64,000 bases of DNA from Candidatus Latescibacterota bacterium. GTDB taxonomy: Bacteria > Latescibacterota > CBDEFO01. The stretch lies in NCBI GenBank assembly GCA_965248755.1, contig OZ252149.1:4128001-4192000 (forward strand), in the 5' to 3' direction. Positions 15,001 through 24,000 of the stretch are shown in pieces (position 1 is the first letter of the stretch; every line of letters starts with the position of its first letter). Made by a program: the position numbers.

Positions 15001-18000
15001 ACAGGTAGGGATAGATTTCTATAAACCCGAAATAGAATACACTCTTCGAGCACTTCTTCGAGTTCTTCCCGACAGTCTTCGAGATTGCCGGAAGTGGCAT
15101 ACACGCCGTTACATTCTGGAATCTCCCCGTAGTACTTGCCTTCATCTGGTAGAATCTCGTAATGGGCGTGCTGCATAGCTGTCTTTATATATCTCGTTAG
15201 CATAGTTATCTTCCCCTACAAAAACGATAAGGGTGTCTTGGTCATGAAATCGGCTACACTTCTTCTGACATCATCGAATGATAGGCATCTTTGATATGTT
15301 CTTCAAGTTCATCTATTGTTTCCCCCTGGCTAAATACGCCCGGCACTTCCTTAAGCTTACCGACGTACCAGCCATCATCTGTCCAATATTCAAGTGTGAA
15401 GTGTCTTAACATAGTCGGTGCATCTCCGACTGGTTTTCAACCTATGGACAACATGGCTAACGAGTGAGTTCAAAGGGTGCATAGCGTTCCGATGCAGCCC
15501 GGCTCACATACCGATTGCCCCTTCCCTCATATAAAAATCCAGAGTCACCGCTATTGATACGTTGCCGTGGATCTCAGAGGGTGTAAGCGCGGCGTAGGAT
15601 AGTCTCATCTCTTTAGGCTGTGTTTGCCTCAGGTAGTCGAAAAACTCGCTTGCCTGATCGTAGCTCCCACTAGCCCACAGTCTCTGTTCGAGTTTAGGAA
15701 CGTAACTCTGTGGGGATATTCTTTTCTCTTCGCCAGTGAAGTTCAGACCTATCTCTGCGCCCTTTTTCTGAATCGCCTTGTCCAGGGATACGAAACCGGC
15801 CACTGTCAAAGAGCGATCTTCCGAATATCTTTCCGGTTCGGGTATCAAAGATGCGGACCCCCAGATCGAGAAGTTCAAAGCACCCCTTTGCGTCCCCTTT
15901 GGCATCGACATCTGTGCACTGTGCTTAGGGAGTCCTTTTTTCAAGGACGCCAGGAGTTCTTTTGCATTCTTAGGTGCCGGGGAAGATCCCTGGATAAAGT
16001 AATCTCCTGTGTAATTAACAGTTACCGAATTAATCTGAACGAGCGGGAACACCATCGCCCCCTTGACCTGCACAAGAACCTCCAGACATACGTCTTTCCC
16101 TCCGAAAAGTTCTTGGATGGCGAGTATCTTCTCCTTTTCTGCAGGCGGTACTCCCTCTTTGGAAGTCTCTGGGATTGCCGCTGTCAGTTGTTCTGTTGCT
16201 GATTTCTTCTCAAATATCCCTTTGGCGGTCGCGGCTATCATGCGTATCTCACCCTTAAGCTTTGACCTGAAAAAATAACCTCCGCTGCCTACTGCCGCTA
16301 CTACCACAACTGCTGTGATTAAGAGGATCCAGCTTTTGCCTCCGCCCGTCTTTGGAGGCTTCTTTTGAAGAAGGTTTATCCTAATCATTTTTCCTGGAGC
16401 CCCCTGTACGCTAATCCAGCGCAAATACAAAAGACCTCGCCTCTGTCCAAGAGGTATTGATCATTCTCGGGGAGGGACGACACGTCTAATCCCCCGAATG
16501 GGTCTAAGATCTGTGGTGTGACTCCCAAATGCGCTTCCACAGCTTGAATTAATCTGTCTTCCTTGCCTTTATCTCCTCCTAATGCTACTTCGTCAATATG
16601 CGGCCTCTGCGGCTGCCCCTCTTCATCGTAGATATAGGAGGACGTAACGGCTCTTTTGATCCTCCTCGCTAGAAAGTTTTCCGGTTCTGTCTGACCTTCG
16701 CCGTTTTTCCCCTTCATATCTATTATCCCTGCTGATACAGGATTGCCGTTCTTAAACGCCGCAAAGCTTGCCACTTTCGATTCAACGGAGATCACAACTC
16801 CTAACTTATCCTCGTTAAAGAGGGTTATCACTTCTGCCAGGTTGAATAGGGCAAACGGATCTATATCCACCGCTTTTAGCTTGACGCCGGCCTTGGAACA
16901 TAAGTCCATATACGTATCTATCACTTCTGTTCTGGCTCCGACAAGGAAACCATCTGCACCTGCGTCGTAGAAGTCTATTATATAATCTTCTACGCCCGAA
17001 GTCAACGACTGCTCCATCTCCCATCTCACCTGCTCCTCCAGATGTTTGCCTTTCCCTTCAAGCGGAGCCTTCTTCAACGTTATGAAGCTCCCATCTATTG
17101 AAACCACACACCTGGATGTATCTATGTGATGCGTCTCGGACATCGAAGCTATAGCTTCTGCTATCTGTGTCTTTATTCTATCGTCCAGCATATCCGGTGG
17201 CTTAAAGTCCGATGGCAATTGAGAATATCCCAGCCCCATCAAGACTGTTGCCTCCTTTTGCTTCTGTATCTCCATCATTCTGAGCGTCCCGCCGCAGATA
17301 TGAATTCCGGTTGCTCCTTTAGCCTTAGCCACAGTTTTGTCTCCTTAACTTTGGCTTGTAATGCCATGGTCTACGAGATTCCTTCGTCCACTTCGTGGCA
17401 AGCCCTCGATTGAATCTTTCGGGGGCAAGCTGCCTCCCCAGCAAAGCGGCCACGCCGCCTCGCAATGACATTGTCTGGCTGCGATCTTAGTCATTGCTAA
17501 GGGTGAAACACGGAAGGAATCCCCTATCTATTGGGCGTGGTAACCTCGCCCCTGCCTACTATCTGCTGACTTTAGTCGAATCTTATCTCCGCCCAGAATC
17601 CTAGCTCTCTGATCTTCCGAGTCCTTTTACTGATATTATTAAACGTGTTTCCGACTTCTATCTTGGATCCCCCAGTCAGCTTTCGACTGAACTTGTAACT
17701 GGAATTGAACACAAGCGTCCAGCTGTTCTGATCCCTCCTTGGAACAGACCCCCTACGAATAGACCCCTCCGATAAAGGCAATTTGTTTTCCTCCTTAGTC
17801 CGACTCTTTGTGAACTTGAGCGTCATATCCACATCGCTTTTTAATTTTACCTTTTTCCCAAAGAAGGGTATTCCCCTGGAGGTACTGATCGAATAGTCCA
17901 AAGAAAAGTCCAGCGAATTTTTGGTAGTCTCTGTGCTACCCCTTTCCCTCCCGCCGGTAAAGTCCGTCCTAAAAGACCGGCTATTTGTGCTTTTGAGCGT

Positions 18001-21000: not shown

Positions 21001-24000
21001 TCCCCAGCGTTCGTCAATCGGTATTGTACCTGATACCTCCTCTTGATAGGTAGCTTTTCCCTCAGGATCGAAATCCAACACCAGGATATCTGTTTTGTTC
21101 TCCCTGCTTGAGACTTCCTTGTTGGGCCATATCTCCCTGGTGTCCACTCTATCGAAGGGATTATACCATATCAATCTTCCCTGAGTGGATTCGAAGCTCT
21201 TTGTCTCCTTTGATTCATCCACCGGTGGGCTGGCCTGGGTCCACACAGATCTGAATATCCCAAAGCTCGTCTTCCTACTGCTCCCCTCAAAGTCATCTAT
21301 GAACGCCTGACCCAGTGTGTTCGGGTTCGGAAGGCTTTGAGCAAATTCAGCGGATATGTGAAGCTTCGAAGACTGCGACGATTTTACAAGTGGAATGGCG
21401 TTCACAAAGCTTGTCATAAATTGGGGCTCGAACTGGAGCCTCAAATCTGTGTCCCAGATTATTGTTCTTGCAGGCTCTTGACCAACTCGCACTCTCTTGT
21501 CGATCGATCTTTCGTTATTGTAGAGGAAGGTGCTCCCAAGGGACGACTTGCCCATAAATTTGTACTCAGCTCTGGTCCCTATGAGTGTCTTTTGTTGAGC
21601 CGCAAACGCAAAGAGCGGGCTGTCTTCGAAATTGACCACTACCTCTGCTGTGGGGGAGAGCGCTTCGTCTGTTAAGAACGTAATATCCCCTGAAAAATAG
21701 TCTATATTGTAATCGGTTCTCCTTTGAAGTCTCCTTCCGTTGAGGATGACTTCCTCAGAGCCCTCAAGGATGCCAAAGGAGCTGATGCTGACCCTGCTGG
21801 ACTGTCTGTCCTGGACCTCCACCTCTATAAAGTACCTGCTGGCGTTTTGTCTGACTATCCGGTCTTGGCTTTCGTATATTTGGGGGATCGTCTCTTCAAG
21901 CGGCGGTATGTCAAGACCGTTATCCCTTGCCCAATCGGGGTTTAAGGGAGCAAAAGGCTGAAGGTCAGGTAATACCAATTCTCCTCTTTCAAGGTCTAGC
22001 GGGACGAAACGGAAGTTGCCTATCTGTATCTCCCCGAGATCTACAAGATTGTCAGATTGGGGGTTGTTATCTCTATCCTTATGGTCTAATCCTAAAATCT
22101 TTATGTAGGGGACGCCGTTTTGCGAATCGTCGGGATCGTCCCCGGGGAGATCCTTGAATATCCTGAGGTCGAATCCTTCGAGATTTATCCTCCTTGCTCC
22201 GAGGTTGTAGACATTTTTCCACTCGAGGTCCCAAGTTGTCTCCTGACCCGGGAACGGTCTCTGATTCTTGGCCTTTATCAGTTTTAAATTAAGTTCTGTG
22301 CCCAGCGTCGCGAGGCTGTCCACGTCTCCAAAGGAGTCTCCCCTCTTCGTCTCGTAGGTCACAGCTGCAACGTGGTAATCTCTTACGGGTCTGTTCAGAA
22401 TTATGTATCCCAACCTGGGGTCCAGGAAGTAGTCATTAGGGTCTATCTCGTGGAACTTGCCTCTGTGGAAATTCGTAGCAGTTTTTTGGAAATTGTCCGG
22501 GTTGAACTCCTGTCCTCCATCCCAATAGTAAGCGAGTCCATCTATAGCTCTGTCTTCGGCATCGTTTTGCTGATTCTGGTCATCTACGAAGACTCTCAAG
22601 TTGAGTATAGAGAACTGGGGTTTGTATTCTCGTTCCTTGAACCTGTCTCTATATCCAATATCCAGAAAGAAGTACTTATTCCTTATGTACTGGAAATCCT
22701 TTATCCTTCTGGGTTTGTTCTGCTGTGCTCCGCCTCTGAAGGTCTTCTTCTTTCCCGAAGATTTCTCTTGACTCACAATAGTCGTTATATCGACAGAGCC
22801 TACCTTGCTTTTGACCCTGATTCCGAAGAGCCCTTTACTTTGAGCGCTGAAGCCCACAAACTGCGTTCCGGGGAGAGACAAAGTAGTGTTTCCTGCCTCT
22901 ATCTCCTGAATTATTCCGTCCTCTATCCCGTCGTATCTGAGTTTTATAGCGTTGTCCGTTCTCCCTCTGCTGTCCTGGTCCACTTGAACGTGAATTCTCT
23001 CTCCGATGATCCCCTCTACGGTGAACCTGGACTCCTGCTTCATGTTGAGAGACGGGAACTTAGATGGCCTGGATGTAGCAGTAACGATTTGCCCATCTGT
23101 CCACTCGCTCCTGCCCGAAAAGTTGATCTTCCGCCTCCCTGACACCTTGACTCGGCTCCCTTCACCTATGATACTCCTTAGAGCCTTTGGTATCTTCACT
23201 GGAATATTGATGCTCAGTCCACCGTCCTTCTTTCTGTCCTTTTTATTCTCTCTTACGGCATCCCTGTCGAACCATAATTTCCCCCTGTCCATGTCTGTGC
23301 TCAGTTGGACAAAGTCATCGACACCTAACGTAACAGGCCACCCATATCGGGACTTCCCAAACATCTTCACAAACTTCACCCTATTCAGTCCCGGATACAC
23401 TTCCAGCTCGTCCTGGATCATCTTGACGTTGCTTTCAAGAAGAGCTGGAGAATCGTTAGATAGCGATATCCTCCCTGATCTCCCGTTCCCGCCTTTGTTC
23501 CAGAATGTGCTGTAGTTATCCGGAATCTTAAGCCCCAGTTTTGACTGTGCTCTATTGGGCAACAACAGGAAGAGAGCGCAGACTAATATTGTGAAAACTT
23601 TCCTATTTCCCATGACGGTTTGAGCTCTAACATAGTAAAAGCACAGTGCATTGGATAATACCACAATAGTGCCTAAAGATCAAGTTAAATTTTGGCCGGC
23701 CGCAGAAATGCTTTTGTTTTAAGTCTGAAATATTTTATATTGTAGGATAGAGTCCACATAGATACAGTAGACAGTAAACAGTAGACAGGGCACCGCTCCT
23801 CATCACCACCTGTTTCCACCACCTCCTTCCCCTCAATGGGGCCAATAGACCTATGAGCATACTGCACCGCTATGTATTGAAAGAACATATAGCTCCTTTC
23901 TTCCTAAGTCTATCAGTCATCATCTTCATACTGATAATAAACAGGATCCTTTTCTTTGCAAATATGCTCCTAGGAAAGGGGGTAGGGTTACAGGTCATCG

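Follow-up and report, generated by a model that had tools for sequence, protein, structure and literature searches.

A sprA locus of Candidatus Latescibacterota with a type IX secretion core, no detectable motor and a PilM/PilNO-like gene pair

Introduction

The described systems closest to the locus that we report here are of three kinds: the system for type IX secretion (T9SS) in Bacteroidota (Por in P. gingivalis, Gld/Spr in F. johnsoniae), the PilM-PilN-PilO proteins of the type IVa pilus (P. aeruginosa, M. xanthus and T. thermophilus), and the GspL-GspM proteins of type II secretion (EpsL, XcpY, PulL, PulM). In the type IV pilus (T4P), the PilMNO subcomplex reaches the outer-membrane secretin, and periplasmic modules of the PilN-PilO sort connect to outer-membrane machines in both T4P and the type II system (T2SS). 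The "Incertae sedis" class of Bacteroidetes, which we take to be the Rhodothermus group, is a further case of interest. For this class, a translocon and attachment set without PorK/L/M/N has been tabulated, in the part of the source considered here (PMC7323717).

We analyse a stretch of 64,000 nts (the window, within which all coordinates are given) from Candidatus Latescibacterota bacterium (Bacteria; Latescibacterota; CBDEFO01), assembly GCA_965248755.1, contig OZ252149.1, positions 4,128,001-4,192,000 of the forward strand. The source genome (G000) is compared to its sister genome G009 (96% complete), to a phylum set of n=168 Latescibacterota genomes, and to 80 sprA loci from a scan of other lineages. 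A preliminary description of this DNA had proposed a motor-less T9SS in which a PilM/PilN-like gene pair behind sprA is the partner of SprA. The undetectable motor and the synteny hold up; the pair as an energiser or as a general partner does not. As a whole, we lean towards a SprA-centred T9SS core without detectable motor, plus a passive PilM/PilNO scaffold that is independent of any pilus.

Results

The outer-membrane half of type IX secretion

Sov/SprA and the two genes behind it had been placed on the minus strand, and all three ORFs are found there (Table 1). The locus encodes SprA, the pore of type IX secretion, and the genome has the outer-membrane half of the system: besides SprA, it encodes the sortase PorU, a protein of the PorV family, and some 90 cargo proteins that bear C-terminal sorting domains. 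In a profile search of the source genome, PorU, whose presence had also been claimed, scores 712.1 bits, and the PorV family is borne out for the one protein re-scored (243.7 bits). Sorting-domain cargo is as abundant as proposed, with a different count: 93 six-frame TIGR04183 matches for the type A C-terminal domain (CTD) at E <= 0.001, compared to the earlier 75 genes. The 1274-aa cargo protein of the window is one of those 93. An over-cut-off SprA is present in 162/168 phylum genomes, and the dN/dS of sprA relative to G009 is 0.19.

Table 1. Features of the sprA locus, in window coordinates.
Feature	Position	Strand	Length	Characteristics
PilN-PilO fusion-like bitopic membrane protein (PilN/O)	15504..16388	-	294 aa	N-terminal MIRINLL peptide, one membrane helix, disordered linker, two ferredoxin-like periplasmic domains
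PilM-like actin-fold cytoplasmic protein	16385..17332	-	315 aa	PF11104 51.7 bits (cut-off 27)
Gap between sprA and the PilM-like gene	17333..17571	-	~240 nt	
sprA/sov, T9SS outer-membrane translocon	17572..23664	-	2030 aa	TIGR04189 766 bits (cut-off 200); Pfam SprA_N 137 bits
lptF and lptG, conserved neighbours, divergent from sprA	23853..26596	+		Pfam LptF_LptG 282 and 303 bits
T9SS cargo with TIG, cohesin, dockerin and type A C-terminal sorting domain	27868..31692	+	1274 aa	TIGR04183 29 bits (cut-off 23); Cohesin and Dockerin_1 Pfam matches

Searches for the motor and ring

The absence of GldL, GldM, GldN and an over-cut-off GldK had been reported for this genome, and those figures are reproduced exactly with the TIGRFAM models; extra Pfam models were run as well. 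In the source genome, GldM (TIGR03517) has 0 matches at E <= 10, GldL (TIGR03513) reaches at most 10.9 bits (E 0.72), GldK (TIGR03525) reaches 88.9 bits against a cut-off of 350, and GldN (TIGR03523) has 0 matches with a profile that is also silent in every control. For the Pfam models, the top scores are 12.2 bits (GldL_N) and 13.2 bits (GldM_1st), with 0 matches for GldM_4th. Altogether, seven motor HMMs have no match below E 0.1 in the source genome, amongst them the GldM domain models and the short GldL_N. The phylum-wide lack of GldL and GldM is confirmed as well (0/168 over cut-off for each). In other SprA-bearing phyla, GldL is over cut-off in 0/151 genomes in the phylum of G172 and is found in 0/5 genomes of Zixibacteria, Gemmatimonadetes, KSB1, Caldithrix and "Ignavibacteria"; GldM is found in 0/5 further genomes. 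Neither TIGRFAM nor Pfam HMMs detect PorK/L/M/N in the genome, or GldL and GldM in the phylum.

These profiles are trained on Bacteroidota, and a motor and ring of the PorLM/PorKN type could be present but diverged past their reach, which we regard as distinctly unlikely. The absence figures come from genomes that include no Bacteroidota positive control, the GldN profile is silent everywhere, and many FGE-sulfatase-fold proteins in the genome match GldK halves, up to the 88.9 bits given above. However, beyond the silence of the seven HMMs and the phylum counts, the weak phylum GldL matches fall in open frames of 592-1212 aa, the top phylum GldM match is a chemoreceptor, and a crude scan for neighbouring genes with two and one membrane helices gives 8 pairs, none convincing. 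SprA, PorU and PorV of the source genome far exceed their family cut-offs, which points to moderate overall divergence. The lack of a motor is not peculiar to Latescibacterota, and a set without one has already been tabulated in the part of PMC7323717 considered here. A "core only" T9SS set appears to be normal for SprA-bearing phyla outside Bacteroidota.

Architecture of the gene pair

The PilM-like protein scores 53 bits with TIGR01175, under the cut-off of 133, and its family profile aligns with PilM structures from end to end (3jc8, E 1.2e-28; 2ych, 1.1e-23; 5eou, 5e-21). Its predicted model has an AF2 pLDDT of 92, and the top ten Foldseek matches to it are all PilM (TM 0.65-0.77). The third ORF, PilN/O, has no Pfam or NCBIfam match; its second periplasmic domain matches EpsM at 7.8 and PulM at 7.7. 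The start of PilN/O is most likely the ATG at 16388 (MIRINLLQKK...) and not the TTG at 16430. That ATG overlaps the pilM stop as ATGA, and the genes are translationally coupled.

For PilM and PilN, predicted docking scores 0.69, and the best of 3 controls 0.01. The docking mark is reached by 116/157 solved complexes and 2/215 mismatched pairs, and the runs share at least 61% of contacts with a partner pLDDT of at least 47. The docking speaks for likeness and not for binding, because like complexes (2ych, 5eou) have already been solved.

The two coupled genes behind sprA are of type IV pilus ancestry. The cytoplasmic PilM-like protein is predicted to clamp the first nine residues of PilN/O (MIRINLLQK). 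PilN/O is predicted to span the inner membrane once, with a periplasmic tandem of one PilN/GspL-type and one PilO-type domain. Between them, the two chains reproduce the PilM-PilN-PilO alignment scaffold, and the pair may be a passive inner-membrane and periplasmic scaffold driven by neither protons nor ATP. The single membrane helix of PilN/O is uncharged, with no acidic residue, and the phosphate-1 Asp of the ATP site is replaced in 23/23 PilM-like family members (kept in 0/23). Judged from these sequence features, the pair is not a motor. The proposal of a second way to energise SprA through it is not sustained, since a scaffold with a single uncharged helix and without the phosphate-1 Asp should be incapable of energising secretion.

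Does the pair serve a pilus?

The preliminary description also considered that the pair may simply serve the pilus, which fails phylum-wide. The T2SSF platform is found in 29/168 phylum genomes, the T2SSE ATPase in 52/168, and a secretin in 72/168. Both ATPase and platform are missing from 101/143 genomes with the PilM-like gene, and the secretin as well from 72/143. Amongst genomes with the full pair, 64/79 have no platform and 31/79 have none of the three, including the sister G009. The pair would therefore be retained independently of any pilus. In family f6, four genomes (G010, G014, G015, G021) have a second PilM match beside a T2SSE gene and a secretin, and this separate PilM beside the secretin is canonical.

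For the source genome itself, service to its pilus-like locus at 1.13-1.16 Mb is highly improbable. That locus has a secretin, PilB-like and PilT-like ATPases and a PilC-like platform, and a single strong PilM is picked up in the genome by the phylum PilM HMM. Yet G009 retains the pair (94% and 87% identity) with no match to ATPase, platform or secretin, and across the phylum the PilM-like gene and the platform are not associated (odds ratio 0.61, p 0.39; relatives not independent). The pilus locus had been described as lacking a PilM, but next to its secretin lies an 861-aa ORF with a weak PilM-like half of its own (HMM E 1.3e-4; hhalign E 4e-4, probability 35%), and fused PilM/PilN/GspL families are the atlas leads for it (0.83-0.85).

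The neighbourhood of sprA

The synteny of the pair with sprA, as previously proposed, is strong: in 116/127 genomes the PilM-like gene is on the same strand as the SprA match and 0.8-3.3 kb downstream of it, and PilN/O comes immediately behind the PilM-like gene in 79/83. The order persists down to 25-30% PilM identity. This fits a real functional tie and counts against the explanation that we favour. The minus strand of the gap that separates sprA from the PilM-like gene shows nothing like a terminator or a sigma-70 site; the gap has a fold z-score of -2.15, and a stretch of about 25 nts in it occurs 4-8 times in the genome.

In most other phylum families that gap is occupied by a ComEA-like gene (HHH_3, 65-81 bits), which directly precedes pilM, often with a 4-nt overlap. 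G007 has a G|AVILE prepilin-like gene between comEA and pilM. Amongst the 80 loci of other lineages, RsmD is found in 26, ComEA-like genes in 16, and CoaD in 14, and the divergent lptF/lptG arrangement also in 26; in other phyla, genes resembling dprA and comEA repeatedly turn up downstream of sprA. An old, mixed block of housekeeping genes surrounds sprA, which makes adjacency by itself weak evidence. The pair may be a Latescibacterota-specific paralogue inserted beside comEA in an old operon-like block of sprA, comEA, rsmD and coaD.

Such neighbours also suit a remnant of a module for type IV pili or DNA uptake (comEA, pilin-like gene, pilM, pilN/O) that acts with ComEA or another envelope process and is merely inherited beside sprA. 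The piecemeal loss of the pair, PilN/O first and PilM later, agrees with this reading, which we consider possible, if rather doubtful. A pilus or uptake pseudopilus requires ATPase and platform, missing from the 101/143 genomes above; comEA is absent beside the pair in G000 and G009; and purifying selection still acts on it, with dN/dS relative to G009 of 0.32 for pilM and 0.53 for pilN. The dN/dS values, that of sprA included, are noisy because dS is only 0.09-0.18.

Is the pair the inner-membrane partner of SprA?

By analogy with the T4P PilMNO subcomplex, the pair could be the inner-membrane partner of SprA and replace PorLM/PorKN as the trans-envelope link, as suggested in the preliminary description. 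The same-strand synteny across the phylum, the gap without terminator and the nature of the PilN-PilO periplasmic module all point this way, as does the retention of the pair in the 31 genomes without ATPase, platform and secretin, where some other partner is needed. We nevertheless consider this replacement unlikely. The pair is found at only 4/80 sprA loci of the wider scan (three Latescibacterota, one Zixibacteria), and SprA occurs without either gene in f10, f3, G039 and G025. SprA-positive genomes without the pair retain CTD matches (59 in G032, 38 in G034, 14 in G006 and 14 in G039). PilN/O is gone from families f11 (0/3), f12 (0/22) and f13 (0/31) while the PilM-like gene stays. Furthermore, in most lineages the pair follows comEA, or in G007 the prepilin-like gene, and not sprA directly; no PilP-like adaptor is seen; and features for ion conduction or an ATP site are absent from the pair. 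It is not a universal or general SprA partner, and a true partnership, with its periplasmic end touching SprA, is improbable to about the same degree. The PilM-like gene found alone in f12 and f13 is unexplained by a pure membrane-scaffold model, which counts against our favoured reading.

Comparison with known systems

Compared to the Bacteroidota T9SS, this genome has the same SprA/Sov, which matches the solved F. johnsoniae SprA (6h3j/6h3i) at E 2e-60 with phmmer, an adjacent PorU sortase and PorV-family gene, and the type A sorting domains. It differs in that no PorL/GldL, PorM/GldM or PorK is detectable with the Bacteroidota-trained HMMs, and in the PilM/PilNO-type genes that follow sprA, an arrangement of which we found no published description in the portions of the literature that our search covered. 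The reduced set of the "Incertae sedis" class agrees with that of the Latescibacterota genome; that class belongs to another phylum, and the part of PMC7323717 considered here draws no mechanistic conclusion and names no PilM/PilN neighbour.

With the type IVa PilM-PilN-PilO proteins (5eou, 3jc8, 2ych, 2rjz), the pair shares the full-length PilM fold and, by prediction, the docking of a PilN-type N-terminal peptide on PilM. Here, in contrast, one chain combines the PilN-like with the PilO-like domain, the phosphate-1 Asp is missing, the genes lie beside sprA, and PilP, PilQ, PilB and PilC are not linked to them and are absent from many pair-bearing genomes. With the type II proteins, the pair shares a PilM-like fold resembling cyto-EpsL and a second periplasmic domain that matches EpsM and PulM. 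GspL joins its cytoplasmic actin-like domain and the membrane part in one protein, with GspM as a protein apart, whereas the pair described here has a free-standing cytoplasmic part and a fusion of the two periplasmic parts.

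A type IX pore and the search for its motor

The outer-membrane half of the machinery for type IX secretion (T9SS) is present and heavily used in this genome. It includes SprA/Sov, the translocon of the canonical T9SS, which matches the solved F. johnsoniae SprA (6h3j) at E 2e-60, and the sortase PorU (NF033707, 712.1 bits against a cut-off of 420). The PorU gene adjoins a PorV-family gene (NF033709, 243.7 bits against a cut-off of 90; 174.2 bits for the PorV equivalog NF033710, below its cut-off of 250). A six-frame search finds 93 matches to the type A C-terminal sorting domain (CTD; TIGR04183) at E <= 0.001, nearly all above cut-off.

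For type IX secretion in Bacteroidota, both the PorLM/GldLM motor and the PorKN ring count as core and essential. Here there are about 90 CTD cargo genes, a sortase and a pore, yet no recognisable motor. For GldM, TIGR03517 and Pfam PF12080 (GldM_4th) give 0 matches in this genome and PF12081 (GldM_1st) reaches 13.2 bits at best; for GldL, the best scores are 10.9 bits (TIGR03513) and 12.2 bits (PF22827, GldL_N). The best match to the ring protein PorK/GldK (TIGR03525) scores 88.9 bits, where the cut-off is 350, and covers only generic parts of the FGE-sulfatase fold. The GldN model TIGR03523 has 0 matches here, and likewise none in any control genome. Across the phylum, with HMMs run without a Bacteroidota control, GldL and GldM are each over cut-off in 0 of 168 genomes. 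Outside it, GldL is found in none of five sprA-bearing genomes of Zixibacteria, Gemmatimonadetes, KSB1, Caldithrix and 'Ignavibacteria', nor over cut-off in any of 151 genomes of an 'Ignavibacteria'-labelled phylum, and GldM is at 0/5 in five further genomes. The pore-without-motor pattern is seen in every other SprA-bearing phylum that we examined, and it is not special to Latescibacterota. The sprA genomes sampled beyond the phylum included no true Bacteroidia, and the control for the Gld HMMs comes from print only: passages of the TXSScan report (PMC4793230) describe T9SS, by the TIGRFAM GldJ/K/L/M/N profiles, as occurring in Bacteroidetes (60 of 97 genomes) and nowhere else. A diverged motor lying undetected elsewhere in this genome is quite unlikely. 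Seven genes of the MotA/ExbB/TolQ family are present, the nearest about 160 kb away from sprA. The preliminary description had listed SprA, PorU, the PorV family and type A CTD cargo, which our HMM scores bear out; its GldM, GldL, GldN and GldK figures are all reproduced, and PorL and PorM are, as it claimed, missing across the phylum at these cut-offs.

Several motor candidates were rejected. Weak GldL matches in the phylum (15.4-21.8 bits) fall in open frames of 592-1212 aa, the best weak GldM match (in genome G105) is a methyl-accepting chemoreceptor, and the GldL_N match in the window's genome is a 217-aa exported protein of the wrong topology. A crude hydropathy scan for adjacent pairs of a GldL-like protein (two helices) and a GldM-like protein (one helix) returned eight candidates, none convincing, which is a weak negative. 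On inspection by eye, a 421-aa ORF 3' of lptG resembles an exported repeat protein of beta-helix type and not GldM. At G000:C1:1893278-1907845, in the window's genome, four modules stand in tandem, and in each of them an exported protein of about 870 aa precedes a 300-350-aa protein of the FGE-sulfatase fold. These account for several partial 'GldK' matches; their layout differs from that of gldKLMN, and we rejected them as such.

Layout of the sprA locus

Three co-oriented genes lie on the minus strand: sprA, a PilM-like gene and a PilN/O gene (the last two are the pair below).

Features of the sprA locus, in window coordinates
Feature	Position	Strand	Product	Remarks
sprA	17572-23664	-	2030 aa	TIGR04189 766 bits (cut-off 200); Pfam SprA_N 137 bits
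sprA-pilM gap	17333-17571	-		about 240 nt
PilM-like gene	16385-17332	-	315 aa	
PilN/O gene	15504-16388	-	294 aa	likely start ATG 16388 (MIRINLLQKK...)
Two small ORFs, then rtcA	14961-15203 and about 15260-15420 (the ORFs)	-		downstream of PilN/O; position and strand are those of the ORFs
lptF and lptG	23853-26596			upstream of sprA, divergent
Cargo gene beyond lptG			1274 aa	cohesin, dockerin, type A sorting domain

We take the PilN/O product to be the 294-aa form rather than the 308-aa form with a TTG start, because the likely ATG overlaps the stop of the PilM-like gene as ATGA. In the gap behind sprA, a weak consensus scan of the minus strand finds no terminator-like or promoter-like sites; a stretch of about 25 nt inside it has 4-8 copies genome-wide. 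Compared with the sister genome G009, and at low divergence, dN/dS is 0.19 for sprA, 0.32 for pilM and 0.53 for pilN/O. The two small ORFs downstream may resemble HicB-type antitoxins. The divergent lptF/lptG genes are also upstream of sprA in 26 of 80 sprA loci from other lineages, a conserved pairing of LPS-export and T9SS-pore genes.

A PilM-like protein and a PilN-PilO fusion

The PilM-like protein has the actin-like fold of PilM over its full length. It scores 51.7 bits with PF11104 (cut-off 27) and 53 bits with TIGR01175, below the cut-off of 133. A profile of 23 PilM-like proteins of the phylum, compared over full length with PilM structures, matches M. xanthus 3jc8 at E 1.2e-28 (300 positions), T. 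thermophilus PilM at 1.1e-23 and P. aeruginosa PilM at 5e-21. With its AF2 model (pLDDT 92), the top ten Foldseek matches are all PilM (TM 0.65-0.77), and FtsA and cyto-EpsL come next. The site that reads GLDIG in M. xanthus PilM reads TGIH in this family. The Asp of GLDIG, which we take to be the phosphate-1, nucleotide-binding residue, is found in none of the 23 members, which have His (16), Arg (4), Tyr (2) or Gln (1) instead.

The second protein is a PilN-PilO fusion, by the placement of its domains and by Pfam PilN matches in two orthologues. The protein (AF2 model, pLDDT 70; domains assigned with VIA-align) has MIRINLL as its N-terminal peptide, one membrane helix that bears no charged residue, a disordered linker and two alpha-beta-beta-alpha-beta-beta domains; its periplasmic domains span residues 96-294. 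It has what is typical of PilN, namely an INLL-type N-terminal peptide, a single membrane helix and a periplasmic ferredoxin-like domain, together with the PilO core fold. Pfam PilN (PF05137) does not match the protein of the window; the orthologues at loci L007 and L009 score 24.5 bits, over the cut-off of 22.8, and 20.0 bits. A homologous-protein search finds only the protein itself and one relative at 78% identity.

In the predicted complex, residues 1-9 of PilN/O dock on the PilM-like protein with a score of 0.69 (best of three controls, 0.01); no less than 61% of contacts are shared between runs, and the pLDDT of the partner is 47 or higher. This mark is reached by 116 of 157 solved complexes and by 2 of 215 mismatched pairs. 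Since PilM:PilN complexes are already solved, the predicted docking speaks for likeness to them, not for binding.

The pair is kept where pilus genes are missing

That the pair might simply serve a pilus had been raised as a caveat in the preliminary description, and the distribution of pilus genes runs against it. This genome does have a pilus-like locus, with secretin, PilB-like, PilT-like and PilC-like genes. Across the phylum such genes are far less common than the pair: a PilM-like match occurs in 143 of 168 genomes, the T2SSF platform in 29, the T2SSE ATPase in 52 and a secretin in 72. Both ATPase and platform are missing from 101 of the 143 PilM-like genomes, and from 72 of the 143 the secretin is missing too. 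The PilM-like gene is not encoded together with pilNOPQ, a pilus ATPase and a platform, nor does it track them across genomes, as a type IV pilus PilM would. The PilN/O profile has matches in 87/168 genomes, and PilN/O is directly 3' of the PilM-like gene in 79 of the 83 genomes with both among the matches listed; 64 of these 79 are without the platform, and 31 without platform, ATPase and secretin. The sister genome (96% complete) keeps both proteins, at 94% and 87% identity, and has no pilus gene match. In family f6, four genomes have a second PilM match adjoining a T2SSE gene and a secretin, which makes the sprA-linked copy a separate paralogue. We reject service to a pilus for the phylum, and find it unlikely for this genome.

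The pilus-like locus had been described as lacking a PilM, and this holds only in part. At G000:C1:1135870-1138455 (L023:10870-13455), outside the window, there is an ORF of 861 aa, with a 315-aa ORF and a secretin of 397 aa downstream. The C-terminal half of the 861-aa ORF is weakly PilM-like (E 1.3e-4 by HMM, 4e-4 by hhalign), and leads from the atlas go to families of fused PilM/PilN/GspL; probably this ORF is the fused assembly protein of the locus itself. The 315-aa ORF shows no relation to PilN/O (hhalign probability 0.7% against the PilN/O alignment).

Separately, 36 of 76 genomes of family f14 have a secretin of about 810 aa (for example G151:C24:44060-44563 and G109:C88:17382-17891). 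The T2SSF platform is found in 5/76 and T2SSE matches, mostly weak, in 18/76, and these look like orphan secretins.

Is the pair a partner of SprA?

The suggestion that the pair is a partner of SprA has synteny on its side. In 116 of the 127 genomes with both among the matches listed, the PilM-like gene is on the sprA strand and 0.8-3.3 kb behind the SprA match; of the remaining 11, eight have the two on different contigs or strands, one is an origin wrap, and in the last two the distances are 9 kb and 488 kb. The arrangement persists at 15-31% PilM identity. Against the suggestion stands the order in most families: sprA, (M28 glutaminyl-cyclase-like), comEA-like, (small membrane protein), pilM, (pilN/O), (rsmD), coaD, obg, where brackets mark genes that are sometimes present.

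Other lineages also speak against it. The block downstream of sprA exists in other phyla largely without pilM: among the 80 loci there are 31 with M28, 26 with RsmD, 16 with ComEA-like and 14 with CoaD genes, and only 4 with a PilM-like gene (three Latescibacterota, one Zixibacteria-labelled MAG). Within the phylum, the PilM-like gene stands alone in families f11, f12 and f13 (PilN/O in 0/3, 0/22 and 0/31), and both genes are absent, with SprA retained, in families f10 and f3 and in genomes G039 and G025. Genomes without the pair still have CTD matches (59 in G032, 38 in G034, 14 in G006, 14 in G039). From the block order elsewhere, the 4/80 loci and these losses in SprA-positive lineages, we conclude that the pair entered an old mixed block next to comEA, and that in several lineages SprA can do without it. 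That the pair contacts SprA or its partners is, on this balance, unlikely. A role linked to ComEA, or another derived from a pilus, is somewhat less so, and still doubtful. A prepilin-like G|AVILE motif opens the small membrane protein (L004:7008-7433) that is encoded between comEA and pilM in genome G007, a sequence feature that hints at descent of the comEA-pilM-pilN/O group from a pilus or DNA-uptake cluster.

Two further neighbours may be recorded. In part of family f13, an NYN-domain protein (119 bits) is 3' of the PilM-like gene at the usual PilN/O spot (L014:4980-5753, L016:8243-9070). The M28 glutaminyl-cyclase-like gene (Peptidase_M28, 116 bits in L004) is directly 3' of sprA in its 31 loci, which belong to Zixibacteria, KSB1, Calditrichota, 'Ignavibacteria' and Marinimicrobia; it is also there in several Latescibacterota families (e.g. 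L004, L005, L008, L025) and absent from that place in the window's genome. This adjacency may link the translocon to the N-terminal pyroglutamate formation, or 'Q-rule', treated in passages of PMC5837995.

Comparison with known systems

Parts of this picture are in print. BLAST hints of T9SS in Chlorobi, Fibrobacteres and Ignavibacteriae appear in passages of PMC5837995, CTD cleavage in F. succinogenes is inferred via proteomics in a section of PMC6851124, and part of PMC6539836 cites R. marinus Xyn10A as attached to the cell via its CTD. A table in PMC7323717 gives a Bacteroidetes 'Incertae sedis' class a component set without PorK/L/M/N, so a motor-less set is already published, though the passages that give it do not discuss it as such. 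Among titles and abstract openings, we found no paper on PilM/PilN beside sprA; searches also returned none on type IX secretion in Latescibacter, and among the papers listed for Calditrich, Zixibacteria, KSB1, Marinimicrobia or Cloacimonad groups none contained T9SS. What is new here is a PilM/PilN-PilO pair that stands in the sprA block independently of pili, and how widely the motor-less core occurs; a demonstrated new way of powering secretion is not among the novelties. Of the preliminary description as a whole, the observation is confirmed and the interpretation supported in part.

If motor-less cores do secrete, then a dedicated motor is unnecessary for the outer-membrane step, or energy is coupled to it in another way. 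Among cultured relatives, Rhodothermus, Gemmatimonas, Fibrobacter, Caldithrix and Ignavibacterium are candidate bearers of SprA.

With this pair, genes of a pilus scaffold are plainly retained in dozens of genomes without pilus genes. Its retention there calls for a new function, and its place beside sprA offers one concrete hypothesis. In the predicted arrangement, a PilM-type cytoplasmic protein would clamp the N-terminus of a bitopic PilN-PilO fusion, and the two chains would reproduce the PilMNO alignment scaffold. We infer a passive scaffold. Lacking an ion path and a conserved Asp at the ATP site (0/23), the pair cannot by itself energise secretion, and the idea that it is a second way to energise the T9SS falls. 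In the broadest reading, which we hold to be quite improbable, the T9SS began as a motor-less core (SprA, PorV, PorU and CTD cargo) that in seven phyla or more still functions with no PorKLMN, and in the sprA operon of Latescibacterota the pilus-derived PilM/PilN-PilO scaffold was taken up to serve the translocon as a new tether in the inner membrane. Were that reading true, this system would be a hybrid of type IV pilus alignment machinery and T9SS machinery.
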